DNA from: Mesotaenium endlicherianum
Taxonomy: Eukaryota
Length of the DNA: 63,591 nucleotides
Direction: 5' to 3'
NCBI GenBank assembly: GCA_009602735.1
Contig: WELA01002119.1
Coordinates: 318,143-381,733 of the forward strand
Part shown: piece by piece, positions 6,879 through 63,591 of the stretch
Numbering within the stretch: position 1 is the first letter of the stretch
How the letters are laid out: the number at the start of each line of letters is the position of its first letter
Translations under genes and position numbers: made by a program
The notes under the pieces: generated by a model
The model's database searches: none
What the model was told of the DNA's origin: nothing
What the model saw: only the letters and a program-made list of their open reading frames with translations

Positions 6879-7145
6879 CTGTCATTTCAGTTGACACGGG
6901 AAGGTGACAGGCGGTCCTGTCTCCATTTAAGTTGGAGGGGAAAATATATGACAGTTAGTGAGCGAGAGCGATAAAAACACACTCATACGTTTATGTGTAG
7001 CGCATCGCAACTACGTCAACTTTTAGCAATCATCCTGTAAGGTAAACAGCAGCGAAGCCACTATACTAAATACTAACATACTTCCTGCAATCCCTATGAC
7101 AAAGGTCCATATCCTACTAACTTGTGCCCTGGTTACATGTGCAGG

Positions 7146-15084: not shown

Positions 15085-15589
15085 GTTAGGTGGGTGGGCA
15101 CGCGGGTTGTGCCGATACAGGAGAACCGTCTTTCCCCCGCTCTCCCTTCCTCCCCCCTGGCTGCCACATAGCACCTCCTCCCCCCTGCCCATGGTGTTCA
15201 GTTCGCCTGCTCCATTAGTTTTGTCTCCTTTGTCAAGAATTTGGAGGCAGGGGGAGCTGGTAGAGGGTTTGGGCATATGTGGCCATCTGCCAAAGTAGCC
15301 TGATACTGCTCGCCTGCTGCAAGCTTGCCACAATCCTGTCGCACGCCCGGCAGACTCGCAGAGCAGCTGGCTGCACGCGCGTGGCCGCCGCGCTGGCAGT
15401 CGCTGGCCTACCACAAGCCCGTTGCGATGGCCAAGGGGGCAAAGGGGCCTTTGCGCTGGTATCGAAATGTAGGCGCTGGCCTGGCGCTGAAAGGGTCAGG
15501 GACAGGCAAAGGGGTCGGAGGGGCAGGTGGGCCGAGAGGGCACAGGAAGCAGAGGGGCCTGCACGCTGGCACCTGCATGCAGACGAAAC

Positions 15590-16730
15590 TTGTGTGGGAC
15601 GGGCAGGTGCAGCCGCCCGCCCCTTGCCTTCTTGTGTCGGGGCGGGCGGGCTGGTTGCTGCAGGCAGTTGCTCCCGCCCGCCCCTCGTGTGTTTGTGCTT
15701 GTGTGGGGCGGGCGGGATCAGCAGCCCGCCCCTTGTGTGTATGTGTTTGTGTGGGGCGGGCGGAATCAGCAACTCGCCCCTTGTGTGCTCGTGTGGGGCG
15801 GGCGAGCCTGCTGCAGCAGGCAGCTGCTCCTGCCCGCCCCTTGTGTGTTTGTGCTTGTGTGGGGCGGGCGAGATCAGCAGCTCCCCCCTTGTGTGTATGT
15901 GTTTGTGTGGGGCGGGCGAAAGCAGCAGCCGCCCCTTGCGTGCTTGTGTGGGGCGGGGGGGCCTGTTGTTGCAGGTATTTGCTCCTGCCCGCCCCTTCTG
16001 TGTTTGTGCTCGTGTGGGGCGGGCGGGAGCAGCAGTGTGGGGCGGCCGGGAGCAGCAGTCTGCCCTTGTGTGCTCGTGTGGGGCGGGCGGGCCTGAAGCT
16101 GCAGGCAGCTGCTCCTGCCAGCCCCTCGTGTGTTTGTGCTTGTGTGGGGCGGGCGGGAGCAGCAGCCCGCCCTTGTGTGCTCGTGTGGGGCGGGCGGGCC
16201 TGCTGGTGCAGGCAGCTGCTCCTGCCAGTCCCTCGTGTGTTTGTGCTTGTGTGAGGCGGGCGAGATTAGCAGCCCGCTCCTTGTGTATATGTATTTGTGT
16301 GGGGCGGGCAGAAGCAGCAGCCCGCCCCTTATGTGCTCGTGTGGGGTGGGCGGGCCTGTTGCTGCAGGCAGCGGCTCCCGCCAGTCCCTTGTGTGTTTGT
16401 GCTTGTGTGGGGCGGGCGGGATCAGCAACCCGCCCCTTGTGTGTTTGTGTTTGTGTGGGGCGAGCATGAGCAGCAGCCCGCCCATTGTGTGCTCGGGAGG
16501 GGCGGGTGGGCCTGCTGCTGCAGGCAGCTGCTCCTGCCAGCCCCTCTTGTGTTTGTGCTTGTGTGGGGTGGGCGGGATCAGCAGCTCGCCCCTTGTATAT
16601 ATGTGTTTATGTGGGGCGGGCAGAAGCAGCAGCCCGCCCCTTGTGTGCTCGTGTGGGGCGAGCGGGCCTGCTGCTGCAGGCAGCTGCTCCTGCCCGCCCC
16701 TTGTTGCTCGTGCTTGTGTGGGGCGAGAGG
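15590..16730 (+). repeat. GC-rich tandem hairpin array (about 45-65 bp units)
   Basis: Repeated TGTGTGGGGCGGGC-[variable loop]-GCCCGCCCCTTGTGTG units. This array generates the many Cys/Gly/Ala-rich spurious ORFs. Confidence 0.9.
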
Positions 16731-16976: not shown

Positions 16977-18028
16977 ATGGACCCTTGCAGTGCAACAACA
17001 AAGATTTTTACTGTCTTAGCTCTCCTCATTGTCATATTTGCGGTTCAACAGTGGGGCTCCATACAGCAAGCTTTTGGTGAAGTCCTCAGAAACACCACTC
17101 ATGAGTTAGACATGGCCGTTGAGAGGCAAGCTAGGGATCGATTGCAGAGATTTTTACAGTTCACTATGCAACATACTATGCTATGTTATCATGTTAAGGT
17201 TGGGAAGAAGAAGCGTAAGCATCGTGAGGTGTATGTGTATCCTAGGGACTCAACATGGTTTGAATACTTGGTGCTCACTCAATGGGAAACACTACGATGG
17301 AGAAGTTTGATGACTTTGAGCAGCTTCATGGATGGCAAGGCGTTGCTGGTGCCATTGACTGCACCCATATCAAGATCAAAAGACCATATGGGGTGGCAGG
17401 TGGGTGCTACCGCGACAGAAAAGGTGACTATAGTATCATTTTGCAAGCAATTATAGATTCCAAGTGCCGATCCTTAAGCGTTTATGGTGGGTGGCCTGGG
17501 TCTGTTCATGATTCTCGCGTTTTTAAAGCATCTCCTACACATTTGGCCTATGTGGCATATACCCATGTGCTGGCAAGTACCCCTCATGTGCAAATCAAGG
17601 ATGGACATCTCGTTAGACCATATATTTTAAGGGATGCTGGGTATCAACTAATGCCTTCGAACATTACACCATACGATAAGGTCAAGTGCCAAGAGGATGC
17701 CTTACGTCAGGCATTCAATTATGAGCATTCTAGTCAAAGAATGGCGGTAGAGAGGACCTTTGGTGTTTTCAAAAATGTGTGGCGTTTGTTTGGTGGTGTA
17801 GACAGGTGCGTAAAGTACAATACGAAGTCTATAAGCGTCATTTTGATGGCTGGTTGCATCTTGCACAATTGGCTGATAGACATTAAAGAACTAGACGTAG
17901 AAAGCTACACCTTACATGCTGAACAGGCGGTGCCTGGGCGTTGTGACGCACAAGAAGCTGTAATAGCCAAAGGTAGTATAGTGAGGGACAAGCTGCAAGA
18001 TGCATTCTGTGAGGCTCGTGTTGTGTAG
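16977..18028 (+). pseudogene. Harbinger/PIF DDE transposase, internally deleted and frameshifted
   Basis: GAIDCTHI, YRDRKGDYSIILQAIID, GWPGSVHDSRVF, ILRDAGY, FNYEHSSQRMAVERTFGVFKNVW, GCILHNW. The N-terminal part (VYPRDSTWF..W..LRWR) is in another frame, and the HTH segment expected between them appears missing near 17305. Confidence 0.9.
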
Positions 18029-19517
18029 ATTATTTGCGCTCATATTTTATTATTAATAAAGTTCATACTTGAAGGTAGCAGTAGGATATGAATTGCTATA
18101 TGATGTTAGGCAACTTAATGGCCATATTATTTCATATTTTCTATACCCAATAAAAGTTGTGCAATGTCGCGACTATTATCCGTTTGACGGTGTCCCACGC
18201 GCAGCGCACGCTACGGCCACCTAGTGCGGAAAGTCAACGTTGACTCACTGACCACTTGACTGATTACATCGCAGTCAGCGGTTATGGCGGCGTCAAGACC
18301 ACTGGCAAGGGGTCAATGTCAGTGTGCCCCACACCCAGGGATGGGGGAGATTTTGACAAGACAGCCGCGAGGCTAGGAAGTGGGGATCAGCAATGAGCCG
18401 CCCAGCAAGTACCAAGTCAGTTACTGTGTGACTGGCAGATTAAGCCAGGTCATGGCTGCAATGCCAAGATAGGTTACGGCCGCCCGGTTGGGAAAACTTG
18501 AGCAAGTGGTATTTGCTTGCACGCCGCTCAGGAGTTCTTAGCCATGAGCCGATTAGGCGTGACTGCCGGCTGAGAAGCTAAGCAGCCACGCGCGACAGTC
18601 ACAAGGTGTGCATGCATGCTGAGTGACTACGAGTTTGAGTTGAGCATGGCTAGGCAAAAGCGACATGCAGCTAAGTTGTGAGACTAAGCACGGCATTCAC
18701 GAAAGATGACGCTGTGTAGTGCCTGTGAAAGGCACGAATCTTGCCTAAGACATGTCATTCACTCTCACGCGCCTTTGCCAAGAAGCAGGAGCAGAAGGAA
18801 AGAGAAGAAGGGCGCGAAGAAGAAGAAGGAGTTCCCAAGGCCATTGGAGGGCCAAGGCCCCACGCTTTTGATGACGCTGAAGATTCTTCTGTGTATCATA
18901 GATAAAGTTAGGATTGTAGGAGTTCCCAAGAGGGAGTCTCACTGTTGAAGAAGGAGAACTGCAGAATAGAATCTGCTAGGAGATTAGCACAGAGTCAGCC
19001 AAACGCCACAAGTGTGTGTGAAGCAGCCTTAAAATGGTGAATTGTGTGTTACTTTCCAAGTTCTCAGAAGTCGCATTCGCATCTCGAAGAGAGAGAGTAG
19101 TATTGACAGATAAAGCTCTCAGTGAAGAACTGAGTGAGCCCAGCCTGGCAGTGAAGAGCTGTTAAGGCGCGGTGTTAAGTGAAGAGCTTGACCAAGGCCA
19201 ACATAGACGTAGTTTCAGAGTTTTGTAAGCTGACTTGTGGAAGTTAAGCGAAAGCCTGAAGGGCGGTTTTCTCTGAATCTGACGTTGCATGTCAAGCTGC
19301 TTAGAGTGTGATTTCTGCAAACTACAATTTGCTCACCTGTGAATCCAAGAACCTTAAGGCATAAAGCCTATGTGGAAGTAAGAGACTTTTGTCCTACTTC
19401 TAAGAACTTCAGTTCTGTGGTTCAGGTGCATAGAAATTCCAAAGCAAATTGGGGTTGAGGCCTGTGAGGGCTGCCGGTGCTCAACCTGGAAGGGGACCCG
19501 GAGAAATTCAACTGTAC

Positions 19518-21389
19518 ATGCAGTTGAGAAGTGGAAGACTCTACTACCCTGTGGAGCCTGCGGAAGGTTCTGATTCAAGCCAGAGTCCACGAGGAAGTGA
19601 GACATCTGAGCACACGGATAACCTGTGGAGTGAGCAACCGTCGAGAGACGAGTCTTGCCATACTGCCACGAACGGTGAGAATCCGTATAACGCGCAATCC
19701 TTTGTACCCAATTTGGGCAGAGAGCACAACGTGTGGGATAAAGATAGTGAGTCTTGGTCACCACTCGAAATGACTGGTGATAATAAGGATGAAAATCCTA
19801 AGTTCAAGCTGTCTACAAAGTGTTTTAGTGGACGAACCAGTGGAAATAGTCTCACTTTCGAAGAGTTTGATGAGATCTATTGGGCTGACTTCTTTGAGAA
19901 AATTCGAAAGGATTCTTCTTACACTCAGTCAGTCGCTTTTATAAGCTTGGTTCAGTACTTGGACAAGGATGCCTTGTTGCTGTATCGCCAATTTCGGAAG
20001 GATGAGAACCTTATCCAAGAATGGGCGTTTGACGAGCAAAAGAAGGCGAGGGATTTGAAAATCCAGAAAGAGGCTGCGAAAGCCCGCCTGTCCGCTTTGT
20101 CATCAGGAAGAGCGATACCTGCTGCACCTGTTGAGAGCGTAGACTTAGCTGCACTAACACAAGAATTAACAGATGCCATGAAGCAACTCACCGAGGGTCA
20201 GCAGCGAGCGGCTACTCGAGATGATGATGCTGGATCTGTCGTAGAATTGCGTAAAGTGTATGAAAAATTGTCTGAAAAGATTGCTAATGCTCAGGAACGA
20301 GTAACACGCATAGCTGCACCTTTTACATGGCAGCATGGTGATAGTGTCACCACGGAAGCAAGCCATGCGCAAGCGTTGGCTAGTTGCCGTAGGGATATGG
20401 AGGCTGGGGATGACCAGTTAGACTCTGAGCACTGTCTGCGTCGTTTCTTTAAGTTGCTTGAAGCAACATTCCCAGAGGATCGCAGTCATAAAGTGCACCG
20501 CTATGTGCATTTTGTCCGTCGGAAGAACGAGACAGTGATGGAGGTCAAATCCAGATTGGTAGACCTTGCCAAGAAGGCAGGAATCTATGAGCCTAGGATT
20601 GTGGCTGACAAATTCTTATTGTGTCTGGGTAAAGACACAGATTGGGAGGTCAGGCCGCACCTATTTGCGAAACGCAGAATCGACTGGAACATCGACGAGG
20701 CTGCTGAAATAGCACGCAATGTCGAGGAAGGTAAAGTCTGGTGCAAGGAGGCTTCCAGGACGCTTATGGCTCCTGAGAAAAGGGAGGAATCCTTTCAGCC
20801 TAAGGCCAATAGCTCTAATTTTCAATTTAAGAAAAAGAGCGGGTCTTTCAATAGGTTTGCTAAGCACGCCAACACCGCTGAGACAGCAGAGGGCTGTTGG
20901 AATTGCGGGAAACCAGGACATCAGAAGAGAGGTTGTCCGTACCCGGATGCTAAGCAATTGTCTGCTAGCAAGGCGCAGGTATGCGCACATTGCAGTAAAA
21001 AGGGACACTCAGAATATGAGTGTTGGTCCAAGAACCCAAATCTGAAACCACCATGGGCTAATGCTGCCAAGAAAGAGGCGGATAAAGGTAAGAAACGGGA
21101 GAGAGATAATTATGGTAACCGGAAGGGTAACCAGAAGTATGATGCTATGAGTGCAGAGATTGCAGAGTCGAAAGCTCAATTTGCAAGACTAAGTGTGCCT
21201 AGTGTCTACTATGATGCAATTGTGGCCAAAAAGACCGTCTGCAAAGGCGAGAAGCTGACGCCTGAGAAGGCCGTGGCTGCAACGGCTGCGGAGCGCGCAG
21301 ATCATGACCGTCTGGTTCCAAGAAGTGCTGGGAAGCTTCCTCAGACCTTTTGGATCACTCTCAATGAGAACGAGATTGCGCAGCTATGA
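19518..21389 (+). CDS. gag: Gag of the DNMT-bearing element (two zinc knuckles)
   Basis: MQLRSGR start; CWNCGKPGHQKRGC and CAHCSKKGHSEYEC. The frame continues past the TGA at 21387 into the protease. Confidence 0.85.
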   Translation: MQLRSGRLYYPVEPAEGSDSSQSPRGSETSEHTDNLWSEQPSRDESCHTATNGENPYNAQSFVPNLGREHNVWDKDSESWSPLEMTGDNKDENPKFKLSTKCFSGRTSGNSLTFEEFDEIYWADFFEKIRKDSSYTQSVAFISLVQYLDKDALLLYRQFRKDENLIQEWAFDEQKKARDLKIQKEAAKARLSALSSGRAIPAAPVESVDLAALTQELTDAMKQLTEGQQRAATRDDDAGSVVELRKVYEKLSEKIANAQERVTRIAAPFTWQHGDSVTTEASHAQALASCRRDMEAGDDQLDSEHCLRRFFKLLEATFPEDRSHKVHRYVHFVRRKNETVMEVKSRLVDLAKKAGIYEPRIVADKFLLCLGKDTDWEVRPHLFAKRRIDWNIDEAAEIARNVEEGKVWCKEASRTLMAPEKREESFQPKANSSNFQFKKKSGSFNRFAKHANTAETAEGCWNCGKPGHQKRGCPYPDAKQLSASKAQVCAHCSKKGHSEYECWSKNPNLKPPWANAAKKEADKGKKRERDNYGNRKGNQKYDAMSAEIAESKAQFARLSVPSVYYDAIVAKKTVCKGEKLTPEKAVAATAAERADHDRLVPRSAGKLPQTFWITLNENEIAQL

Positions 21390-22298
21390 CAAGCCAAGCC
21401 TGGACCACGCAAGACATTTAGTTTTTCGCTGGAAAAGCTGAAGGCTCTAGTGGAAGACCGGGTTCAGCACATTCCTTGTCTTTCACTCGCTGATCTGCGT
21501 CTTACATATCCTTTCACGATTGAGGAAGCCGGACAGCAACTGGACCTAGCTGAGGAAGGCGCAAACAGCGCTTCGCTGCCTACTAATTTCAGCACTGTGA
21601 GAGTGCAGAACAAGGATAGAGTTTTGACGTTTAACGACCGGGCCGCTCCCAATATCCTATTGGACACTGGCGCACAGCCAGTAATATTGGGAAAGCGAGC
21701 TGTGAAAGCTCTGGGATTGACGGCAAGGGACCTGAAAGAAAGTCCTTTCCAGTTGAGGACTGCATCTGGGCAGATTTCAAAGTCTTGTGGAATCACCCGC
21801 AAGCCTGTGAAAATCACAGTAAACTTGGGGAAACCTGAGGAAGCGTCACTGTTCATAGAATGTACGGTGACAGAGGCAGAGAACTATGATGTTCTCTTGG
21901 GGGCAGAAGCTCTGATTCCCTTGGGTATGGTCATCAACCTGCGGAAGCAGAGGGTGACTTACCAATCGACAAATCGGCAGCCGACAGGAGAAATTCCTGT
22001 AAATATGGTTTGCTTGGGAGAGGCAAACTACGGACTGCTAGACTGCTATGTGAATGACCAGTATCCAGACCATTATGACCTCATCATGCAACGCGAAGAG
22101 AAGATCTACACCAGCGTCAACATGCCGACTCCCTTGGTTTGGCAACCTCGGATTATGGAGCAACTAGAAGCTGTGAGTAACAGGGACCGTGGCCCGCTAG
22201 AGCTGCTGCCAGTTCCTTATCCAGTTAAGACTGCTGCCAATTTGATGCCTGGAGTAGACCCACTACCACGAGGATGGAAGATCCTTTTCGCAGGATAG
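21390..22298 (+). pseudogene. Aspartic protease region of the DNMT-bearing element
   Basis: ILLDTGAQPVILG and YDVLLGAEAL, in the same frame as gag. Confidence 0.85.
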
Positions 22299-23270
22299 GA
22301 GTAGTAGTGCTGGAATTGTTCGCCGGACTTGGTACTGGAACCATCGCACTGATTCAGCGAGGTATCCAGGTATCCAAAGTGCTGTATGTGGACAATGATG
22401 AGAGTGCTTTTACAGCATTTGAGGAGGTCATGAGTCAGATGCGGCAAATGTACCATTTCAAGGCATTGGTGCCTACTAGTGTGGTGCATCTTGCTGGAGG
22501 AAACATTCTCGATGTGAAGTTTGAGGACCTGTATGGTTACAGGATTGACTGAATTTTTGCGGGATTCCCTTGTCAACCTTTCTCGCAAGCTGGGAACAGG
22601 AGGGGATTCAATGACCCGCGAGCACAACACTGGGGAAGGATGGTGAAAATCATCAGTATGCTGCGGGAACGCCAGCATCTCTACCCACCAGTGTTTGTGA
22701 TTGAGAATGTACTTCCAGGGATGGATTACAACCAGATGAAGCCAGGAGATCCATGGCTGGTCTTCGACTCCACCCTGGGTCATCATGTATTGATCAACGA
22801 CGCCAGGCACGCAGGACTCTCACACCGGGCCAGACTATTCTGGACCAACGGCATGTCCATTGAACTCCTGAGGGAGATGGAGGAGATTACGCGGCGCACG
22901 CCAACGGCAGTATTTGTGGGAGAAGCACTGATGGTGGAAACCAAGCCAGTGATCAGGGTGGATTCCTACCCACAGTACGTCGTCAACGAGCCAGGCCGGC
23001 CAAAGATGGTGCTGCCCACCTTCACAGCATACCCAGGATCACGCGCATTCGTGAATGGAGGACCAGGAATGGTCAAAGATGTGCACGACAGAGAAGCTCA
23101 GTGGAGAGAGCCGACAACTGAAAAGAAGGGAAGGTGCCTGGGGGTACCCAACTCCATTGCACAAGAAATTGTTGCAATGGTGGGACAGGACAACGCTGTG
23201 AAGATATTCGGCAATATGATTGGGCATCTCTCCATGACATGGTTGGTAGAGACGATTATGACTTGGCAAC
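22274..23270 (+). pseudogene. C5 cytosine DNA methyltransferase domain (one in-frame stop at 22550-22552)
   Basis: Motifs in canonical order and one frame: I VLELFAGLG (22307); IV FAGFPCQPFSQAG (PC at 22568-22573); GFNDPR; VI FVIENV (22703); VIII HRARLFWTN (22823); IX WREPTTEKKGRCLGVP; X KIFGNMI. Confidence 0.9.
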
Positions 23271-25199
23271 AGATGACGTTCTCTGACAAGCCTATGCCCA
23301 CGCCGAGGCCGGTAACGATTGGAGTCTATGTGGTGCCAACCTCTGATCAGAGAGCTATCAGGGAAGCGTATCAGCGACAAAAAGAATATGGTGTTGAAAG
23401 AGACGCAGCTGAGGCTGACCAAGATGATACACTCAGAAAAACCAGAGTGGTGGAGCTGACCAGGTGTCAAGACCTATTGGCGCGAATTGACAATCGGATG
23501 GCGACTCTACACGACCCTCTGGAAAGAGAGTTGCGGAGGCTGCAAGAAGACGTAACCATGGAAGACCAGGTCTTTGGGAGCCCATCCCCAGACGCGGTAA
23601 CATCAAAATATGAAGAACGCCAGTGCAATATTGGCGAATGTGCCGAAGAATGCAGTCAAAATTCAAGAAATTTTGGAGGGTCTGGAAAGACCATTTGCCT
23701 GGAGGTGATTTTTGAAGAACACAGGAAGGAGACGGCCAAGAGATTGCTCGCCACACTTGTTCTGATGAGCCCAGGGCCAGAGGCCAAAGGGCAACCACAA
23801 GACACAGTTGGCAGCACAGCTGAGTCGATCACCAGGCAAATCATGGCGCAGTTGCTACAAGCAGACGCCCCTCGACTCAAGGAAGAGAAAGTGGCGAAAG
23901 CAGCTCTTGCTCTACAGTCAGCCATCATCAACATGGCGAGGCTCAACACAGGAAGGGATGAAGAATTGCCGCCTCCTAGAACAGAGAAGCCGGAGGAGGA
24001 AGAGGATGCAGAGATGCAAGGCCTCTTGGAGTTGGAGTTCCCATCACTCAACAATGAAGGGGACATTAGGGAAGAAATTCCACGTTTTCCCACGCCAGAG
24101 CTGGATCTGCTTGACTTACAGGAGCTGAGGACAGACGACAAGGTAGCTGACCACCTGATGGGGCCAAGCCCGGCAGACCTTTATGAAGAATTAAAGTCGC
24201 CAACATCCAGTTCTCCTACTGCCAGTCTTCCAGTATCAGAGCCCAAGACAACCGCACAACCGCCGCAACGGCAGGAGGTGACTGCCTGCACTGCTAAAGT
24301 GGAGACAGCACAAGGAAAGCCCGAAAGTCGCGCAAGCAGACCAAGGAAGGTGGCCCGTGAGGGTAACGCATCTTTTAGGAGGATGCTAAAGCGATATTTC
24401 AAGCATAAGGGGAAGGCTTAGAGAGAGGGCGTTCCGCGAGGAACCACAGCCCCACCTCCTCCGCCTCTGCGGGATATTCTACAGAGAGAGGGAGAGGACG
24501 GCTTGGTTCGCAGGGCAATGGCATTGGGCATTAGTGTACCGCCAGGCATGAACACGCCCTTGTTGCAACTATCAGATCTTAGGATACAGAGGTCGGAGGA
24601 GCCTGCTCCCATGATACTGCAATCCCAGGATGGGAACAGATGGATCTGAGAAACACCATCAGCCGCTTGACCGCAGCAGATGATGCCTTTCTTGCACAAC
24701 TAGCGGCACCTCAAAGGCCGCAAACGTTGGTGCAGGCATGGATGGTCACACCACCCGCAAGGGAGGAGTATCGCACGACCGTCGCCCGCATAGCTATTAT
24801 TGAGCGAGAATGGGACTGGGCGATCAGCCCTAGGACAGATCTTGCAGGTTTTCCAATGGCAAACCAACCTCGGCCACGTGAAGAAGGAGGAACCGGGACC
24901 AGTTGGACTGCAGTCGACAAGGACATGATCCTGAGGTAGCCCATCCGGAGGCGCCTGACATACCCCTCATCGCGGGAGAGGCGACGCGTCATTGGAAAAG
25001 GTAAAAAGCCTAAGAAACAGGCTGCCGAACTTATGGCAACGGAGGAGCAAGCTGCAAAGCCTGCTACCCCACCTCCTAAGAATCAGGCAGAAAAGCCTGA
25101 GAGCCAGAATCAGGCAGAAAAGCCTGAGGGCCAAGATGAGGGCGGGAAGCCCCCACCTGCACCTAAGGAGTAGCAACTACTCGATGCCTTTGTTGGGGA

Positions 25200-26017
25200 G
25201 AAGCAACCTGAAACGGAGACTTTTGCCATTGGGAAAATGGTCTCAGTCCAGCAGAGAGCACAAGTAGAAAGGTTGCTGAAGAAACACCGCAAGGTATTTG
25301 CTTTCGCTAAAGGGGAGATTGGTAGAACCACTGCCGGTGTGTGTGAGATCACACTAACTACTGATAACCCAGTCAGACTAGGGCCGCATAAGCTCAGTCA
25401 GACAGAGTGGGACTGTGTGGAGAAAACTTGCGTTAGCTGCATAAGCTCCGCATGATTGAAAAATCTACCCCAGTGCATGGGGCTCCCACAGTTGTAGTCG
25501 CTAAAAAGAACGAGGCCGGCAATTACACTGCCACTCGTATGTGTGGAGATTACAAGCGACTGAATCTCTACACGGAGCCAGACAGTTATGTGATGCCTAC
25601 ACCGAAAAGGAACTTTGCAATTGCCACCACCGGAAAGGTGTTCAGCATCATCGATCTGCGCCAAGGCTTCAACCAGATCCCTGTGAAAACAGAAGATCGA
25701 GGTGAGACTGCTTTCTGGGCTCAAAGGGAACTTTGGCAATGGACAGTAATGCCATTTGGGCTGAAAAATGCCCCAGCCATATTTCAGAGGACTATGGATA
25801 AAGTGCTGGAGGGGCTGGATTTCGCTAAGCCATACATGGACGATGTGGTAGTATTCAGCAAGTCCATAGAGGTGCACCTCGAGCACTTGGAACAAGTGTT
25901 CCAGCGCCAGGAGAAATTCCAAATGAAGCTGCATTTTGGGAAGTGCAGATCCTTTGAGGCACACGTGCCTTACCTAGGACATGAGATTGGGAACAATGCT
26001 ACGTCCCCTCAGGCTGT
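25200..26017 (+). pseudogene. pol: Reverse transcriptase (5' part) of the DNMT-bearing element
   Basis: RMCGDYKRLN, SIIDLRQGFNQI, VMPFGLKNAPAIFQR, YMDDVVVFS, YLGHEI. One frameshift near 25440; cut by element B. Confidence 0.92.
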
Positions 26018-26765
26018 TGTAATGAATCAGTATATTAGTAAATATAATATTCATTTAAATATAATAGTTAATTAAGTTCAGCCTGCTGAACTTTAGTTAA
26101 TAGTCAGTCTGCTGGACTTTACATAATTATCAGTTTAATGACTCAGCCGGAAGCAGCAGGCTGAAGTCCATATAAGTCAGCTTGCTGACCCATTCTTTGA
26201 CAGCCAGCTGACTTCCGTACTCGGTAGCAGCGAACTGCCTTGACTTAGACCTAAGTACGATATGCTAGATGAATGGCCAGATGACATCCCTATGATGGAT
26301 GGCTATTCGGGATGATGGGAGATGGCGGTGGATTTGGTTAACCAAGGTCTTACCAACGTGGTTAACTCCCGGGTAGGCGGTGCCATCGCACTGACCGTTG
26401 AACAGTAAACTCATTCCATGTACATATGCTAGGCATTGCTCTTGGGTTCGGCATTCGGAAACGAGGCCAACTCTCCTGTACAGCTTACTGAGAGAGATCT
26501 GAATCCAAGGCGAGTACCCATTGATACGCACTGCCTTCTAACCTTGCTTATGTATGAGTTTACTGCATTATTGATGCTAGTTTACTCGCATTTGACTTAC
26601 GAGTATTATTCACTGCTAGTGTATTGTCCTTTGCCGTTTAACCAGTTAACGAAAATACCATAAAGATAACTTGCTGATATAAAGATCTTTATTAATTGTT
26701 AATCGCTTATTTGGTAAGTTGATTCATTTCAGTGGTATCGGAGCAGTTATCACAGTCTTCTTTGT

Positions 26766-28244
26766 ATGGTAAGGACAAGGTCTCAAACTAGCAACTCCCG
26801 AGACATGGAGAACCAGGATAACGAGAATGTCGAAAACCAGGCGGAAAGCCATGTAGCGGGAAACCGTACCTATTCGGAAGCAGTAGCGGATACTGCAGCT
26901 AGGGAGGCTGCAGATGAGGCAGCTGCTATTGCCTCAGTCGCAGCTCAGCAAGCTGAGGAGGAGATAGCCAGACTAGAAGCTGAACAAGTAGCAAAGGCCG
27001 CTGAAGATATACAAAGGAGGGAAGGACAGCCAGCTGACGAGCGCACTGTTGAAGAACTTATGGCATCAAGGGCCAATGTTCTGAACCCACCTCCTGCCGT
27101 ACAACTCAATGTACCCCTAGGTCAAATACGTGACCGGCTGAATGCGGCAGGAATTGCTGCTGCAGGAGCAAGAGGGATTGTTGAGGACACTACTCAGCGA
27201 GTAGATGCCAATGCTGCTGCTGCATTTGCTAATCTACCACCCCAAAATGTAGACTTGGGAGCATTGTTCGTTCAGATGCAGTCGCAAATGGCGACCATGT
27301 ATCAGTCCCAGCAGGAGGACAAAAGAATCATAATGTCCCTACTCCGGGACAGAGACCAACTGGGGTCTCACACCACTAGTGGTGGTGGCCGAGGGCCTAG
27401 TAAGCCCAAGCCGAAACCTCCCCAGGACTATGATCCTGAGGGAAACAGAAAATATTACCTGATCAAGTTTCTCGCGGATGTTGAGCAGTGGCTGGAGAAC
27501 TACCCAGAACTGCAAGATTACGAGAAGGTCAGGCACACCGGTGCGCTACTGAAAGGCAGTGCCGCAGACTGGTGGCTTTACTGGAAGGAAGAGCGTAAGG
27601 CTCGGCAACTCGGTGACCCTACGTGGGTAGAGTTTGTCGAGAAGTTGCATGAGAAGTTTGATGTCATCAACCAGCAGGAGAAAGCTATCTATGCGATGAT
27701 CTCCCTGACACTGAAGCAGACCACTTCAGTTGCTGAGTTTGCTCAAAAGTTCCAAGAGAACATGATGAAGCAGCCTGATTTGCCAGAACGGTATAGGATA
27801 GCATACTTCAGGTATGGCTTGAAATCCGAGGTCTCTGGTCATTTTGCTGAGAAAAAGTATGAGAAACTGGCTGACTTGATCCAGGATGCTGACGCCTGGG
27901 ATCAGCAGCAGTTCAATCACAAGCGCCAGAGTAACGCTTTGGTGTCTAAGATTGTCAAAAAGCCCCACGGTTCCTACAATGCAGTTGAAGGAGACCAGGC
28001 TGAGGATAATCAGGGTGATGAATATGAGTATGAGTACAATGCTATTCAGTCTAGAGGTAGAGGTGGTCCCTCTCGAGGTGGCTATGGAAGGGGTGGTGGT
28101 AGGACTAAGCCGAGACCAGCCTCAGCAAAATCTACTTGCTACCATTGTCAGCAGAAAGGCCACTACAGAGAACAGTGTCCGGTCAAGCACCTGCCTAAGG
28201 TCGAGAGAAAAGACCAGCCTTTAAAAGACAGCAACAGTCAGTAA
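26766..28244 (+). CDS. gag: Gag of element B
   Basis: 492 aa, nearly identical to gag of A. Confidence 0.95.
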
Positions 28245-28312
28245 TCCAGTCTACTGACTGTGAGGATGCTAGAGATAGTGAGTCGTCACTAGCTGCCCTC
28301 GTAGCAGGTATT

Positions 28313-31300
28313 ATGGGTCCTGCTGAACTGGATTCACTATGCATGCCTGACAAACAGATAAAGGAGACCATCAGTAATATAGACGTCCAGAGAGTGCACA
28401 CTCTGGATGCTCTTGTTCCACCTGATGTCCAACATTTCTTTGCTACGTCAGGAGAACAATGCGAAAGTCAGGAAAAGACAGTCCCCCCTATCCTACTGCA
28501 TTGCATGATTGCAGGTAGGAAGGTGAGGGCATTTGTTGACGGAGGGGCGTCACATACTTTTATCCACAAGGACTTAGTTAAGCGGCTAAGGCTGCCTACT
28601 GTCACCCAAGGGAATAGAAAAATATTCCTTGGAGATGCCTCAAGTATCCCGGGAGGAGTTATAACCAAGCCTATTGAGGTCCAGTTAGGTTCTGGCATTG
28701 CAGTTCTAACTGAAACGCTTACATTTGAGGTACTCAACACTGGCTTTTATGATCTCGTGCTAGGCAGGTCCTGGCTTAATAGACATCAAGCTGAAGTGTG
28801 TTGGAGCAGAGGTACAGTTAAAGTGAGAGGAGCCAGTGATGGGCAGACTGACTTGGCACCCACCAGTGCTCTTCCTCTTGTCCTGTGTGGATGGCAAATG
28901 AAGGAAAAGAAGAGGCTTCCAGAAGGATGCAAGTTGCTGAATGCAATGGAGTTCGTCAAAAGCTGGAACCAGAAGGAAGACAGAATGTTCTGTCTGCTGC
29001 TAAGAGAGGTACCCCCTCAACCTGAAGAAGTGGTTGAGAAAAAGGTACGGCCTCCGGAGCACCCTATTGCTGCAAGCATTGTTGCTCAGTACACGGATGT
29101 GTTTAATATGCCTCCAGGACTACCGCCTAAGCGGGAAGTAGATCATAGGATTGATTTATTACTTGGTAGTCAGCCACCCTGGCAACGCACGTATGGCTTG
29201 TTTTATTTGGAGAGTGAGGAGTTAAAAACACAGATTGCAGAGCTGGAGGAAAATGGTTACATTTGTCCCAGTAAATCACCGTACGGCGCACCTATCCTAT
29301 TTGTTAAGAAAAAGGATGGCAGTATGCGAATGTGTGTGGATTACAGAGCCCTGAACAGAATTACAGTAAAGAACAAGTATGCTTTACCCAGAATCGAGGA
29401 CTTGCTTGATACCCTGTCTGGTGCTAAGGTGTTCAGTAAGATAGATCTCAAGAGTGGTTATCATCAAATCAGAATTGCTGAGGGAGACGAACACAAGACT
29501 GCCTTCCGCACACGTTATGGACACTATGAGTTCAACGTGATGCCATTTGGACTGACTAATGCTCCTGCTACCTTTATGGGTGCTATGAATGACATTTTCA
29601 GACCTTATTTGGATAAGTTTGTGCAAGTTTTCCTGGATGATATTTTAATTTTCTCTAAAGATGAAGCTCAGCACACTGAACACTTCAAAATAGTCCTGGA
29701 CACTCTGCGAAAAAATCACTTATATGCTAAAATGAGCAAGTGTGATTTCTTTAAGGAAAGTATTGAATTCTTAGGCCACGTTGTCAGTAAAGAGGGCATC
29801 AGTGTGGATCCTAAGAAAGTCCAGACCATAAGGGACTGGCCAGTACCACAGTCTGTCTCTCAAGTTAGATCCTTCCGCGGGTTGGCTGACTACTATAGGA
29901 GATTTATTGAGAATTATTCCACAAAGGCCAGTAAACTGACTGACCTTACTAAGAAAGACATCGGGTATGTGTGGGGGGAAGAGCAGCAGGCTGCCTTCCA
30001 GACCCTTAAAGATGCCCTTTGTTCTGCCCCAGTGCTAGCCGTGTATGACCCCAGCAAACCGGTGCAGGTGGTTACTGATGCCTCTGATTTTGCCATGGGT
30101 GCTATTTTGTTGCAGCCTGCTGACAAAACCACAAAGGATGGTAAGGTACGGCAGGAGTGGCATCCTGTGTTGTATGAGTCTATGAAATTTAATCCAGCGG
30201 AGATTAATTACTCAGTGCATGATAAAGAGCTGCTAGCCATCATTCATGTGCTCAAACAGTGGAGAGCATACTTACATGGTAAAGCTTTTAAGGTGATTAC
30301 AGATCATCTAGCTCTGACCCACTTTCAGAAGAAGTCCAAGCTGTCGAGGAGGGAGAACCGCTGGAGCCAGATGCTGGAGCAGTTCCAAGTCCAGATCGAC
30401 TACAAACCAGGGAAGTTGAATCCTGCTGATGCACTCTCTAGAAGACCTGACTTGCAAGAAAGGAACTTTAGTCAGCATGCTGTAGATAAAGTCCTGTGTG
30501 CACTCACTTCACTAAAGGTGAAAAAGTCCTTCCTTGAACAACTTAGGAAAGCCTACCTTTATGACCCAACATTTGAGCCCAGCCCCACTACTGGTATGTG
30601 TCGTGCTACCGCATTCGGGTATAAGCTCAAGGGAGGAATCTGGGTGTCTGAAACCACTTCAAGCAGGCTGAAGCTGGTCATTCCTAATAACTTGGAAATA
30701 AGGTCTCTCTTACTGAGTCAAGCTCATGACATTCTCCNTTCTCCTGGGTGGACATTTAGGGCAGGCCAAAACTGTTGGCAAACTGGCAAAACATTATCTT
30801 TGGGAGGGGTTACCCCGGGAGGTCTTGAAATATGTCAAGTCCTGTGACCAGTGTCAGAGAAATAAGTCTCGGCACACACCACCCGGAGGTCTCTTGCAAC
30901 CACTACCCATCCCAGCTGGACGCTGGGAAACTATATACTTGGACTGGGTGGTCACACTGCCACGAACTGCTAATGGGCATGATTCGATATTGGTAGTCGT
31001 GGATAAACTGACAAAAATGGTCATTTTCATCCCCACAACCGTCAAAGTCACTGCACTCGAAACAGCGAGACAGTTTTACAACCATGTCGTCTGCCAACAT
31101 GGGCTACCTTCTAATATCATCTCAGACAGAGACTCAAAATTCACCTCTAATCTCTGGAAAGCTTTAATGGGGTTAATAGGAGTCAAACAGCTGCTCAGCA
31201 CAGCAAACCACCCTCAGACTGATGGGCAGACTGAAAGAACTAATCGAGTTCTGCAGGAGGTGCTGAGAGCATATATTAACCAAAAACAAGATAATTGGGA

Positions 31301-32036
31301 TGACCTGTTGCCTCAAATGCAGTTTGCGGTCAACAGTGCGGTGCACGCGTCAACGGGCAAGACTCCTTTTGAACTCAGCCTGGGTAGAGTTCCTAAGTCT
31401 CCTTTAGATGTGCTAGGGGAATCTTTAACTCACCCTGAAGGGATTGACAACCCGGTCTCCCTCCAGTTAACTCAGGAGTTTGCTGACACCCTGTCAGAAG
31501 TCCAACGAAACTTGCACAAGGCCCAAGAAAACCAACAAAAATACGCTAATCAACACCGTCGGGAACTGACATTTTCCAAGGGGGATTTAGTCAAACTGCA
31601 TTCTCAGCACCTGTACCTCCCTGGTGTGGTCAAGAAAAAGCTTGGCCCTGTCCGGGTCGGTCCATATTCGGTGGTACGTCGTATCGGTCAGAATGCTTAC
31701 AAACTAAACATGTCAGCTGAATACAAGGGTCACCCGGTCCTTAATGTCTCCTTCCTGGAACCATACATCAAAGGTGATACACTGTTCACAAGTCGGTTAC
31801 CTGTCCAACCGGGACCGGTCCCCGCTGTCCGAGACGGCGACCCTGAGGAATATGAGGTCGATGAGATTTTAGACGCTCGCTCGGTCCGTCGATCGTCTAA
31901 ATATGTCATGAAATACATCATTCGATAGAAGGGTTACGATGCCTCTGGGGACACTTGGGAGTTTAAGGACCACTTGACCAATGCCACAGGGGCGTTGACA
32001 CGGTTCCACCTTCGGGCCGCTGGAGTCCCTTCATAA
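28313..32036 (+). pseudogene. pol: Pol of element B
   Basis: Collinear with pol of A. Frameshift at the ambiguous base 30738 (possible assembly artefact) and a TGG-to-TAG stop inside the chromodomain at 31926. Confidence 0.92.
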
Positions 32037-32426
32037 CTGTCATTTCAGTTGACACGGGAAGGTGACAGGCGGTCCTGTCTCCATTTAAGTTGGAGGGGAA
32101 AATATATGACAGTTAGTGAGCGAGAGCGATAAAGGGACAGTTACGTGAATCCTAAATGTCAGCATAGTGACAGAGGGGACAGCCTGGCCCACATAAAGCA
32201 CCTTGAGCTGAAGGAAAAAGGGCCTCGCACAACACTACATCACTTAACTCACCCTACAACACAATCATACGTTAATGTTTAGCGCATCGCAACTACGTCA
32301 ACTTTTAGTAATCATCTTGTAAGGTAAACAGCATCGAATCCACTATACTAATACTAACATACTTCCCGCAATTTCTATGACAAAGGCACATACCCTACTA
32401 ACTTGTGCCCTGGTTACATGCACAGG

Positions 32427-34130
32427 ATGGCGCCCACCACACAAAAGGAGGACAGAAAGCGCAAGGCAGAAGAAGCCAGGAGGACAATGGAGCAATACCA
32501 GAAGGAGCTGGCGGCGACGTCCCTCACCAGGAGAGAACAAGAAAGGGTCCGCAAGCAACAAGAGGCGGCAGAAGAGGCACANAAACAAGAGGCGACAGAA
32601 GAGGCACAGAGGAAGAAGGATCAGGAAGCGGAAAACCTCAGGAAAGCTGAGGAGGCGAGACAGAAGAAACAACAAGAAGAAGCGGCAGCGGCAGAGGAGG
32701 AGAAAAGGAAAAAGATTGAAGCAGACAGACAGAAGAGCTTGGCCACTTACAGGTATACTGTGGTGGGTGGTCAAAACTTCAATAACCTGAAGGAGGCATT
32801 GCTGGCAGCCCTGGAGATCAACAGGCTGGAACAGATAACACTGCTACAGAGGGAAGGAGCTGCAGCACTGGATAGGTACATCGAGACACACATTGGTGTG
32901 GTCCTCTACGAGGATTATGCCAAGATGGTGGGCTATACAGCGGAGCAGGCTCGGTATCTCGCACATGATTCAGAGGACAAGCCGGTCCCCATACCGGGAA
33001 TAGTGGGAGATCAGAGACTCATCCGGATGGTGAGCATGCGGCCCGATAGCTTTAAGGATACGGTATTCTACCTCACACTCCTGCCAGCTTACAATGAAGT
33101 TGAGAGAAGGAGCTGGGAGTACTTGGCCAGGGAAGCAGGACAGCAGATGTTCTCTCCCCACTGGTTCCCGTGTAAACTGAGGAAGGCTGAGCACGGACCC
33201 CAGTACTACCAGCAGCCAACAGACTGGAGGTGGATGACCGTCACAAATAAGAAGCAGGAGTGTGACCGAGCCCAACCGGATGACTTCCACTATGGCCTAG
33301 ACGGCTATCTCATCCTACCACCTCATTTTGCCCCTTGGGATCCCAGGCTGAATGGATGCCTGAGCAATATGAATGCAGAGACCAAAGAGCATAGGAGGAG
33401 GGGAAGAGACTACTTCTCTAAGGGAAAGCATGCCTTTGTCAAATGGGCAAAGAATGCAGGCCGGATAGATATCAGCAGGCTGAAGGCCAAGCAACCTCCA
33501 GCGCGCCCTAAGAAAGGGAGGTCGGTAGACTACTCCATGTCTACTAGGGAGCAGGACGACTTAGTGGACGAGACCCCTACTCTCTCCGAGGAGGAGGATG
33601 AGGAGGATGAGGAAGAAGAACAAGGCAGAGGAGAAGCATCAGCAGCAGGTACTTAAGATACCCCGGGGCAGACAGGGGCGCTCCCTAAAGAACCACGATC
33701 AGGTATTTGGAATGTGATCCCCGTTATGGCGACAACTGGACCCCGCGCTCGCTCCCCCAGCCCACCTGCCCAAGCAGGGGAAGAAGCTGATCTGACTGTA
33801 CTGGGCAGCAGACACAGGCAGAAATCCTCAGAGGACAGGGGTGCCAGAAGAGGGACACGCGGGTGGGCCAGAGGTATGCCGGCCTCCCCCTCCGCTCAAG
33901 GGCATGTACCTCTAGCCAATGTATTTCAACATCCTACTGGAATGCCTGTCTATGTGGGGATCAACACCCAAGTGGTTGAAGAACAGGCTACCATCCTTCG
34001 TTCTCCTCGAGGCCCAACTTTAGAGCAAACAGGGTTCTTTAGAAGGCCAGCTGACAGACCTAGAGGGCTGTCCAGATCTAGGTCCAGATCTCCGTCTCCT
34101 GACCCTGAAGCCCCAGGAACAACCCCTTAA
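32427..34130 (+). pseudogene. ORF3 of element B (A-type), premature stop at 33654
   Basis: Near-identical to 7146-8822, with TAA replacing a CAG codon. Confidence 0.9.
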
Positions 34131-34963
34131 GGTGACACGCTGAAGAGGCAGTCAGTAAGGGAGGTTGGTCAGGGTCAGTTTTTTTATTTAAGGCTTTGGC
34201 AGTTTAATGTTGTCGAGGCGACAACAAGTTAAGTTGGAGGGATTGTAATGAATCAGTATATTAGTGGATATAATATTCATTTAAATATAATAGTTAATTA
34301 AGTTCAGCCTGCTGAACTTTAGTTAATAGTCAGTCTGCTGGACTTTACATAATTATCAGTTTAATGACTCAGCCGGAAGCAGCAGGCTGAAGTCCATATA
34401 AGTCAGCTTGCTGACCCATTCTTTGACAGCCAGCTGACTTCCGTACTCGGTAGCAGCGAACTGCCTTGACTTACACCTAAGTACGATATGCTAGATGAAT
34501 GGCCAGATGACATCCCTATGATGGATGGCTATTCGGGATGATGGGAGATGGCGGTGGATTTGGTTAACCGAGGTCCTACCAACGTGGTTAACTCCCGGGT
34601 AGGCGGTGCCATCGCACTGACCGTTGAACAGTAAACTCATTCCATGTACATATGCTAGGCATTGCTCTCGGGTTCGGCATTCGAAAACGAGGCCAACTCT
34701 CCTGTACAGCTTACTGTGAGAGATCTGAATCCAAGGCGAGAAGCCATTGATACGCACTGTCTTCTAACCTTGCTTATGTATGAGTTTACTGATTTGCATT
34801 ATTGATGCTAGTTTACTCGCATTTGACTTACGAGTATTATTCACTGCTAGTGTATTGTCCTTTGCCGTTTAACCAGTTAACGGAAATTGCCATAAACATT
34901 ACTTGTTGATATAAAGATCTTTATTAATTGTTAATCGCTTATTTGGTAAGTCGATTCATTTCA

Positions 34964-37182
34964 GCTGTGAAGACTGAGGCCATTTACAAGATACCTGCAC
35001 CTGGGAATGTGTCTAATCTGAAAGCCCTATTAGGGCTAAGCGAATACTATCCTAAGTTTGTGAAGGATTATAGCAGAGTTGCTAAACCCCTGACGGAACT
35101 CCTGAATAAGGATGTACCTTTTGTGTGGACAGAAGCTCAGGAGAAAGCCATGAACGAGCTTAAGGAGCGGCTGGTAACAGCCCCAGTCTTGCAAACGCCT
35201 GACTACTCCAAGCCGTTCAATCTGCACACTGACTGGAGTCGTGTGGAAATTGGCGCAGTACTCACTCAGGCCGCAAGCCCTAGAGAGGAGTATGTCATTG
35301 CCTATGCCTCACGCTCTAAAAATCGAGCGGAGAGCAACTACTCGTCCTATGAAGGAGAGTTGCTGGCAGTGGTTTGGGCGATCACACATTTCAGAGAGTA
35401 TCTGTGGGAAGACCCTTCATACTGATCACTGATCACTCACCATTACTATGGCTGATGAAGAATGGAGACCTCGCTGGTAAGTTGGCTCGCTGGGCTCTTA
35501 AGCTGCAAGAGTACCAAATGACGGTGGTGCACAGAGCAGGAGTGCTCAACAACGACGCCGACGGACTCAGCAGGAACCCAGACCCATCTTTAGACGACAG
35601 AACAGGAGCCCGAGAGGATGAAGACCCGAGCAGCCCAGCAGAGTTGGTGGCTTGCCTAGCCGAAATGGCTGGAATAGTAGCATCAGGTGAAGCTGAGCCT
35701 CTACCCCTGTTCAGTCCAAAGATTTGGAAAGATCAAGCTACTATGCACTGGCTGAAGACGAGAACTCACTTGGAAGGACTATCAGTGAAGGAGATGGACC
35801 AGGTAAACCATCGAGCTAAAAGGTTTTGCTGGAAATGCAACAACCTCTTCAAAATTGAAAAAACTGGTCAGGAGAAGTTAGTGCCAAGACCCATCAAGAG
35901 ACGAGCCCTTGTGCAGGAAATGCACGAGAACACTGGACACTATGGTGTCAAGAAGGCGTATAGTCTTTTGGAGCTGTCTTACTGGTGGAGGGGCATGAAG
36001 CAGCAGTGTGAAGATGTGATCAAGGCCTGCCAAAGCTGTGACCGCGTCAAGGCCGGTTTTACACAGCAACATCCACACTTGCAACCTTTGCCAATCATGG
36101 GCCTAGGCTACCGCTGGAGCTGCGATCTTGCAGGTGAGCTACCGCTGTGTAAACGAGGTAACAAGTATATCATGGTCATGATTGAGCATTTCTCTAAGTG
36201 GATAGAGGTTGTCCCTCTGACTGCTAAGGAGAGTCTAGGAAACGCGGAAGCGTTCCTCAATGGTGTGATTGTGCGTCATGGAGCTCCAGCAGAAGTGCTG
36301 ACAGACGAAGGGTTTGAGTTCCAAGGGTCTTTTCAGAAACTCTTGGACAGATGCTTCATCGATCATCGCACTACGTCTAGAGATCATCCGCAAGCAGATG
36401 GTCTGGCAGAAAGGATGGTGCATACCATTAAGTCTGCTTTGCGTAAGTTTTGCCTTGAGCATGACAAGCGTGACTGGGATCTAGCCCTGCCATGGCTGGT
36501 TATGGGTTACAGATTTAGCAAGCAGGCTGCCTTGGCAAATTACTCGCCATATCAGATACTGTTTGGCAGAAGTCCAGTAGTGCCCAGCAGCATCAAGCAG
36601 GAGATTGAACAGGTGAAAGACCTGGACAGCCCTGATGAATTGTTAAAAGTGATGGTGCGCCGTAAGGCGTTATTTGAGCGCATGATGCCGACTGCACTAG
36701 ACAATCTGAAAATTGTACAGAAAAGAGATACGCAACGTTACGCCGGGACGCGAGACGGGAGCTACTGCCTGCAGATGATGCAGATTCAAGAAGGAGATTC
36801 TGTCTACCGCAAGCGCCAGACCAAGACCACCATCGACACCAGTTCAGGTGCTGTGATCTTGCGCGTGAAACATGCGTTTGACAATGGTGTGTTTAAACTG
36901 AAAGGTTTTGATGGTAAAACCATGAGAGACCACGTGCAGAATTGCTCGCTATGCCATTTGCCGAATATTGATCCCACAGTTAGGGTTGTGCCCGAGGAAT
37001 TGGTGCCAGCCACGCCTTGTGCCAGCTGCAAAGTGCTGGACGATCAGGAAGCAATGGTAACTTGCGATAAGTGTGGTGCCCGTTGGCACACTTTTTGCAT
37101 TGGCGAGGAAGAAATTATTGCAGGACGATGGGAATATCCTAATTGCCTTCCTAAAGCCCCTAGCCGCAGGGCTGGAAAATAA
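34964..37182 (+). pseudogene. pol: RT thumb, RNase H, integrase and C-terminal PHD finger of the DNMT-bearing element
   Basis: LGLSEYYPKFVKDYS; LHTDWS..IGAVLTQ; NYSSYEGELLAVVWAI; integrase HENTGHYG..CQSC, WSCDL, LTDEG, DGLAER; PHD CASC..MVTCDKC..WHTFC..W.YPNC. One frameshift near 35405. Confidence 0.92.
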
Positions 37183-38067
37183 CAGCTTTCAGCAAAAAAG
37201 GCAGGGACGCCTCAGCTGAAAGGGAGGGGTGTAAGAGGAATTAAGGCAAGGCAAGTATTTTTAAATTTTCTGCTAAAGTCTTAGGATAAGCAAATGGTGA
37301 GAGCTGGGTGACTGTAATGAATCAGTATATTAGTTGACATAATATTCATTTAAATAATATAGTTAAAGAAGTTCAGCCTGCTGAACTCTAGTTAATGATC
37401 AGTCTGCTCGACTTTATATTTAATATCAGTTTAATGACTCGGCCAGAAGTAGCAGGCTGATGTCACCTTAAGTCAGCTTGCTGACACATTCTTTGACAGC
37501 CAGCTGACTTCCGTACTCGGTAGCAGCGAACTGCCTCGATATGCATCTAAGTGTGGTATGCTAGATGAATGGCCAGATGACATCCCTATGATGGATGGCA
37601 ATTCGGGATGATGGGAGATGGCGGTGGATTTGGTTAACCGAGGTCCTACCAACGTGGTTAACTCCCGGGTAGGCGGTGCCATCGCACTGACCGTTGAACA
37701 GTAAACTCATTCCATGTACATATGCTAGGCATTGCTCTCGAGTTCGGCATTCGAAAACGAGGCCAACTCTCTTGTACAGCTTACTGAGAGAGATCTGAAT
37801 CCAAGGCGAGCAGCCATTGATGCGCACTGTCTTCTAACCTTGCTTATGTATGAGTTTACTGATTTGCATTATTGATGCTAGTTTACTCGCATTTGACTTA
37901 CGAGTATTATTCACTGTTAGTGTGCTGTCCTTTGCGGTTTAACCAGTTAACGGAAAATACCATAAAGATTACTTGCTGATATAAAGATCTTTATTAATTG
38001 TTAATCGCCTATTTGGTAAGTCAATTCAGTTTAGTGGTATCGGAGCAGTTATCACAGTCTTTTTTGT

Positions 38068-39554: not shown

Positions 39555-39622
39555 TCCAGTCTACTGACTGTGAGGATGCTAGAGATAGTGAGTCGTCACT
39601 AGCTGCCCTCGTAGCAGGTATT

Positions 39623-42600: not shown

Positions 42601-42859
42601 GATGCACTGTTCACCGGTCGGTCACCTGTCCAACCGGGACCGGTCCCCGCTGTCCGGGACGGCGATCCTGAGGAATATGAGGTCGATGAGATTTTAGACG
42701 CTCGCTCGGTCCGTCGATCGTCAAAATATGTCATGAAGTACCTCATCCGATGGAAGGGTTACGATGCCTCTGGGGACACTTGGGAATGTAAAGACCAGCT
42801 GACCANCCAAAGGGGCGTTGAAACGGTTCCACCTTCTTGCGGCTGGGGCACCGCCCTAA
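39623..42859 (+). pseudogene. pol: Pol of element C, RNase H deleted
   Basis: Collinear with A. Stops at 41291 and 41980; about 0.5 kb covering RNase H is missing near 41360-41400. Confidence 0.92.
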
Positions 42860-43183
42860 CTGTCCCTTCAGTAGACATGGGAAGGTGACAGGAGGTCCTG
42901 TCTCCATATAATTTGGAGGGGGCTGTGACAGTTAGTGACAGTTGTGACAAGCAGCCCACCTTTAAAATTAAGTTGGAGGGAGTGGTATTCTCTGATCACC
43001 ATATTACAGACTCAACCTGCGCTCACCCTCACTTGCTCTCTAACTCAATTTTCCCTTATATTCACTTACACCAGGTATTCCACACTAGGAACTCTCCCGA
43101 TCGCGTTCCTCTTCATCAAGGGCACTCAGTAGCGGCAAAACATCATGACTTCACTAACTGCATTGTGTTTATGATTGAGCAGG

Positions 43184-63575: not shown

Positions 63576-63591
63576 GTGAGAGTCCCCCCCC

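Follow-up and report, generated by a model that had tools for sequence, protein, structure and literature searches.

A decayed Gypsy retrotransposon with a DNMT3-type methyltransferase domain between protease and reverse transcriptase in Mesotaenium endlicherianum

The window analyzed here is a 63,591-nt stretch of Mesotaenium endlicherianum DNA (contig WELA01002119.1). An initial annotation described within it a Gypsy element with a C5 cytosine methyltransferase between an LDTGA protease and a YMDD reverse transcriptase (RT), and the locus raises the question of whether this enzyme belongs to the element, of which type it is, and what it does there. The motifs were found in order and in the proposed place. 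The locus is best read as a decayed Ty3/Gypsy copy with a DNMT3-type domain between protease and RT, whose family likely methylates its own new DNA before integration.

The Gypsy element spans 18165-52579 and is split by three nested insertions. It starts with TGTC at 18165 and ends with GACA at 52579, and GCAA flanks both sides as a 4-bp duplication. Its parts run in the order repeat A, gag, protease, methyltransferase, spacer, RT, RNase H, integrase, PHD finger, polypurine tract, and repeat B. All positions given here and below are those of the whole window.

18161-18164 (+): target-site duplication GCAA, left copy; coverage by other copies begins at 18165
18165-19395 (+): 5' repeat A, starting with TGTC, right part of a putative B+A LTR, with a predicted promoter and transcript start near 19058; junctions in other copies run from the B-end to 18165 and from 19395 to the B-start
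19058-19071 (+): complement (13/14) of the primer site, where the transcript is predicted to start, with a TATA-like box some 30 nt before it
19396-19409 (+): predicted self-priming primer-binding site, with no TGG start
19518-21386 (+): gag, with CCHC knuckles at 20895-20936 and 20982-21023, followed by the copy-private stop 21387
21627-21914 (+): aspartic protease, LDTGA at 21660 (PF13975, 3e-7)
22266-22298 (+): frame break between protease and methyltransferase, not present in the contigs of runs X5, X7, and X12 that cross this region
22289-23281 (+): DNMT3-type C5 cytosine methyltransferase by profile and predicted fold, motifs I-X unrearranged; copy-private stop at 22550
23282-25170 (+): low-complexity spacer (1.9 kb), interrupted by two stops (24419, 24937) and by a frame break at about 24616
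25171-25179 (+): candidate programmed read-through stop, TAG + CAACTA, just ahead of RT
25230-26017 (+): RT, YMDD at 25833 (PF00078, 2e-28); frame break at about 25432
26018-34963 (+): nested chromovirus, foreign to the element; 5-bp duplication GCTGT, LTRs 96.8% alike
34969-37182 (+): RNase H and integrase (zinc finger; D 36124, D 36304, E 36409) with a C-terminal PHD finger
37218-37229 (+): polypurine tract
37230-52579 (+): 3' repeat B, about 300 nt, ending with GACA, in the pieces 37230-37312, 45660-45701, and 52402-52579
37313-45654 and 45702-52396: nested elements splitting repeat B
52580-52583 (+): target-site duplication GCAA, right copy

The domain order protease-RT-RNase H-DDE integrase of Gypsy elements is present. 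The three nested elements are younger, each with its own 5-bp duplication and with LTRs 96-97% alike, and the one at 26018-34963 cuts RT off from RNase H. The copy is dead, with stops at 21387, 22550, 24419, and 24937 and several frame breaks. The PHD finger at about 37018-37130 scores 21 bits in this copy, below the Pfam cut-off; the frame stops just past it, with no chromodomain or Dam-like tail. The frames of the element gave no Pfam match to a tyrosine recombinase, and an rve integrase with a 4-bp duplication is found instead. No Pfam family matched the spacer at 23291-24418. The window holds no matching LTR pair for the element and no second copy of repeat A, and no tRNA or Rfam match was obtained anywhere in it.

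The rest of the window contains several other features. A chromovirus family is represented by eight LTR copies and has a long extra sense frame after pol (7077-8822, 32358-33656, and 43175-44848) without a clear match in Pfam. PIF/Harbinger transposase and Myb-like frames flank the element at 17264-18028 (+) and 55663-56481 (-), and beside them lie inverted GC-rich arrays of 48/108/156-nt units at 15500-16700 and 54300-55200. At 56483-56740, a unit of about 130 nt is duplicated in tandem, and the two copies are 95% alike. A host gene at 59162-63578 (+) has a CAAD (CURT1-like) domain, a long C-terminal extension, and many small exons. Its exon at 61527-61673 matches a M. endlicherianum gene model at 100% over 49 residues, and the protein of that gene model aligns with the window over seven stretches of exon size, six of them at 92-100% identity and one at 58%. 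These matches make the zygnematophyte alga, rather than a land plant, the most likely host.

The methyltransferase domain carries motif I at 22307-22333, IV at 22556-22594, VI at 22697-22711, VIII at 22823-22849, IX at about 23102-23140, and X at 23204-23221, with F-x-G-x-G, P-C, E-N-V, and R-x-R all present. Motif IV lies right after the single TGA at 22550, as the initial annotation had stated, and two differences in motif IX (23117 and 23123) are private to this copy. PF00145, the profile proposed at that stage as a check, matched the read-through translation from 22274 (X at the stop) with 63.5 bits and an E value of 3e-17, against a cut-off of 22. A model predicted from a 48-row alignment reached a mean pLDDT of 93.2, and Foldseek placed DNMT3B and DNMT3A at the top with it (E 4e-14, TM 0.66), with HhaI at rank 23. 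The family profile scored 85 bits for DNMT3A, 54 for DRM, 40 for HhaI, 33 for HaeIII, and 26 for DNMT2. By family profile and predicted fold, the domain is therefore DNMT3-type. HaeIII ranked first when the single decayed sequence was compared with solved structures. The profile scores speak against a bacterial or DNMT2-type enzyme, and the fold agrees. The DNMT3 likeness first noticed thus holds, whereas the accompanying hint of a bacterial or DNMT2 affinity does not, since a Klebsormidium nitens protein has the same GFPCQ and DNMT2 scores so low.

That protein, KFL_013780020 of a K. nitens retrotransposon, is 30% identical to the window domain over 334 residues (E 1.5e-25). The window domain and all 33 retrotransposon domains were separated from 16 viral enzymes with a branch support of 98 in a quick tree built without host DNMT3, in which five rows labeled protease-first had no neighbor domain in the domain survey. 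The window domain forms a long branch in the trees, with K. nitens on the same side (support 90; 95 rows, quick tree without host DNMT3). Viral enzymes match the domain in part, with a best E value of 9e-12.

The methyltransferase is a fixed trait of the family and part of the element rather than a separate insertion. Contigs of sequencing runs X5, X7, and X12 bridge protease and methyltransferase without the frame break, with both domains in one frame. One contig of run X20 over the frame break has another length than these, and the two domains would not share a frame in it. The stops 21387 and 22550 are private to the window copy; at each of them, 98% of the contig depth in run X1, which does not equal copy number, has another letter. 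Parts of the methyltransferase domain were detected in 20 of the 24 listed sequencing runs, under five organism labels. Among 80 related metagenome loci from an integrase-based scan (L081-L160), the domain lies between protease and RT in 29/29 loci that have both, and it is present in 34 of the 36 loci with 1.5 kb upstream of RT. These results, together with the bridging contigs, bear out the original view that the domain belongs to the element and is not an independent insertion.

A word-index search of longer proteins for the methyltransferase gave 0/458 candidates. HMMER over all representative proteins found 431 homologues at E <=0.001, and neighbor domains were surveyed in 152 proteins, namely 150 listed homologues of the 431 and two more. 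A protease before the domain or RT after it was seen in 11/152, and the domain lay after RT/RNase H or just before the integrase in 80/152; no neighbor domain was seen in 60/152, and one of the 152 had no methyltransferase match. Altogether, 91 of the 151 methyltransferase-bearing homologues examined adjoin retrotransposon domains. Named proteins with the protease-methyltransferase-RT layout come from K. nitens, Mesostigma viride, and Closterium, and the layout with the domain past RT/RNase H or before the integrase forms a nested clade in a quick tree (support 94). In addition, 20/152 proteins (for example, P0141, P0173, P0175, P0183, P0187, and P0251) combine a DNMT3-type domain and, mostly, a PHD finger with a further C-terminal domain. 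Pfam gave this domain no name, and from its motifs we take it to be adenine methyltransferase-like. Such proteins would be a third dual-methylase retrotransposon type. Members of the retrotransposon clusters of P0328 and P0277 are labeled cyanobacterium and betaproteobacterium and are probably eukaryotic DNA in bacterial bins.

The metagenome loci include two abundant families with protease-methyltransferase-RT order on low-GC eukaryotic contigs. Their pol proteins are 73-84% identical to proteins of the liverworts Calypogeia and Riccia, which suggests bryophyte or land-plant hosts. Transposon-borne methylases are stated to be absent from land plants in PMC6338049. One locus (L082:976-8226) is nearly intact, with two in-register open frames, one stop with a read-through context, and complete methyltransferase motifs. 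Selection was measured on these related loci. The dN/dS of the domain against L082 was 0.19-0.27 in the 9/16 pairs that were unsaturated, and among old copies (90 pairs), the median was 0.41 for the domain vs 0.38 for RT. The dN/dS comparison proposed at the outset therefore points to constraint in relatives, outside the family of the window.

The level at which the enzyme is made can be approached through the stop ahead of RT. A stop followed by CARYYA is a plant read-through signal. The in-frame TAG at 25171 is followed by CAACTA and is the sole such motif in 18165-26016, and the otherwise open L082 has the same stop motif at a like place. The motif was found in 1/37 related loci (36/37 lack it), against three chance matches in control sequence, and in some relatives a single frame is open. 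A literature search on the read-through signal, covering papers available without subscription, found no paper. The main product would more probably than otherwise be Gag-protease-methyltransferase, which read-through would extend by RT-RNase H-integrase-PHD, giving many enzyme molecules per particle, freed by the protease. If the read-through stop ahead of RT is real, the methyltransferase would therefore be made with Gag and in excess over RT.

The ends of the element give evidence on its route of integration. In loose contig ends, the B-end, two bases, and the A-start together form a palindrome (X5), and the A-end is joined to the B-start (X5 and X12). The family layout is A-coding-B-A-B, and the window copy has the form A-coding-B. 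For the end analysis, 11 of the 80 metagenome loci had no repeat match and 6 were duplicates, leaving 63 non-duplicate loci. The B|A junction was present in 29/63 loci, with a 2-nt spacer in 29/29, and 27/63 loci were classed as having just B or A-B, the majority stopping after the first B. Among 14 two-ended loci, a 4-bp duplication was perfect in nine, including one (L154) with doubtful ends, and had at most one mismatch in 11; none of the 14 had a 5- or 6-bp duplication. The 4-bp duplications occur with both end forms. The length of the A|B joint, by a crude measure, was exact in 11/22 loci and altered in 10/22. Among 22 relatives, the two central bases of the palindrome have undergone transitions in 55% and 36%, vs a CHG median of 20%; this is suggestive, but an unconstrained spacer would give it too.

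The primer site lies directly after repeat A, does not start as a tRNA-primed site would, and can pair with a stretch that lies about 30 nt past the TATA-like box. The score of this self-priming match in the window was reached by 6/200 shuffles, and a match was found in 6/8 relatives at <=2/100 shuffles. Standard reverse transcription with a primer site at the A-end and a polypurine tract at the B-start must yield BA-coding-BA. A transcript from inside repeat A may prime itself at 19396, and because of these two positions, its reverse transcription would give BA-coding-BA, with ends free of integrase signals. The DNA would then close to a circle, which the integrase probably opens at the GACA-nn-TGTC palindrome inside the repeat. 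A two-repeat circle would be inserted as A-coding-B-A-B, and a one-repeat circle or later B-B recombination would leave A-coding-B, as in the window copy; cutting of both palindromes can be a further source of this form. The anatomy, with its constant B|A palindrome, variable A|B joint, and 4-bp duplications, thus leads to integration by the opening of a circle, a route that is well supported but unproven. A literature search covering papers available without subscription found no Gypsy element described as integrating from a circle.

A retroviral precedent for such a reaction is foamy virus, whose DDE integrase cleaves 2-LTR circles at their palindromic LTR-LTR junction (PMC1180852). The foamy virus palindrome is made by end joining, whereas the window family encodes it inside the repeat, and circle opening or internal cutting would therefore be obligatory. 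Troyka resembles the window element in its Gypsy-like domain order and unusual ends, but its ends are CG..CG with 3-bp duplications and ordinary LTR pairs, and its hosts are animals only (as described in PMC12440569); the present ends are TG..CA with 4-bp duplications.

Elements of this kind have already been published as Gypsy-Dnmt3 (PMC5890265), and the window element belongs to them. Of the two options first raised, a new family or a relative, the second holds: the element is related to the charophyte family and is not new in kind. As described in PMC5890265, KnitGypsy-Dnmt3 of K. nitens likewise has a Dnmt3-type domain, intronless and unrearranged, within a polyprotein with Gypsy domains, and its DIRS-like A-coding-B-A-B repeats (Fig. 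4 legend) are matched here at the family level. KFL_013780020, whose order is knuckle-protease-methyltransferase, is, we infer, one of the KnitGypsy-Dnmt3 copies of that paper. The window element differs from KnitGypsy-Dnmt3 in its host, a member of the Zygnematophyceae, its long-branch enzyme, its long spacer before RT, and its candidate read-through stop. The text of PMC5890265 considered here notes the repeat layout of KnitGypsy-Dnmt3 but describes neither a route of integration nor a PHD finger. Two Symbiodinium elements, SymbioDIRS-Dnmt3 and SymbioLINE-Dnmt (PMC5890265), are also retrotransposons with a cytosine methyltransferase, and SymbioDIRS-Dnmt3 shares the A-coding-B-A-B layout. DIRS elements, however, have a tyrosine recombinase, whereas the window element has a DDE integrase with 4-bp duplications. 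EpiLTRs/DAM-LTRs (bioRxiv 10.64898/2026.05.21.726589) are LTR elements that encode DNA methyltransferases together with a chromatin reader. Their DNMTs are sister to DNMT4 and accompanied by Dam and a chromodomain, in contrast to the DNMT3-type enzyme and PHD finger, with no Dam-like tail, of the window element. In its available text, that preprint sets streptophyte Gypsy-DNMT3 apart as a case already known, and the word PHD occurs there solely in the acknowledgements. No Mesotaenium DNMT elements were found in a literature search of papers available without subscription.

With regard to the role of the enzyme, the favored reading, to which we give about an even chance, is that the methyltransferase marks the unintegrated DNA during its long life, probably at CG, and that a new copy would thereby arrive methylated like host chromatin. 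Methylation of cDNA has already been proposed for such elements, and the DIRS-borne DNMT3 methylates CG de novo, as found in yeast (PMC5890265). No methylation by the K. nitens domain was seen in yeast, a result that the authors call inconclusive (PMC5890265). The window element bears no footprint of self-methylation in the form of extra CpG loss, with a CpG observed/expected ratio of 0.59 vs 0.43, 0.45, and 0.61 in three other retrotransposon stretches and no 4-mer depleted past z -2.8. Two polyA runs, of which about 6 and 12 in 100 were read, yielded 0 matching reads, with no positive control.

The inactivity in yeast and the lack of extra CpG loss would both suit a domain that methylates little or nothing and is retained for DNA binding or for a structural role in the particle or the integration complex, as would the change from P to E before the catalytic cysteine of motif IV in many relatives. 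Nevertheless, across 48 aligned homologues with about 25-30% identity, the catalytic cysteine, the glutamate of motif VI, and the arginines of motif VIII (R-x-R) vary little or not at all, and P-C is kept in the window copy, K. nitens, and L082. Such a non-catalytic role is unlikely. It is quite unlikely that the enzyme instead travels with the PHD-bearing integrase and acts on host chromatin at or after insertion, where it would mark the target and silence or set the new copy. The integrase does end in a PHD finger, and the placement past RT/RNase H or just before the integrase in 80 of the proteins surveyed would fit, but in the window layout, the domain lies far from the integrase and probably upstream of the read-through stop. 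Methylation of element RNA or of an RNA-DNA hybrid, rather than double-stranded DNA, would account for inactivity on yeast DNA and has been proposed for the LINE case (PMC5890265); nonetheless, a profile and fold nearest DNMT3A/B and far from DNMT2 make it very improbable. A passenger bacterial or viral gene landed in a single copy, as the first rank of HaeIII in the single-sequence search and the frame break with the protease in this copy might have implied, is refuted by the bridging contigs of three runs, the 29/29 loci, the retrotransposon neighbors of 91/151 homologues, and the tree, in which the partly matching viral enzymes fall outside the clade.

The marking of unintegrated DNA by the methyltransferase thus remains the preferred reading. 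A more far-reaching and rather unlikely version of it is that Gypsy-Dnmt3 is a streptophyte-wide lineage with obligate circle opening, in which DNMT3 made at the level of Gag would methylate the circle and the integrase would cut one palindrome while the other is spared, in the manner of modification and protection.

Transposons that carry the silencing enzyme of their hosts are rare. The present results place Gypsy-Dnmt3 in a zygnematophyte, a member of the algal group nearest to land plants, and in a species that is grown in culture and for which sequencing runs contain numerous related copies. Its occurrence in Mesostigma, Klebsormidium, and Closterium and in loci near liverwort proteins indicates an old lineage and not the oddity of one species. 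The anatomy of the ends provides a testable account, integration of a circle, of the repeat layout that is left unexplained in the text of PMC5890265 considered here.
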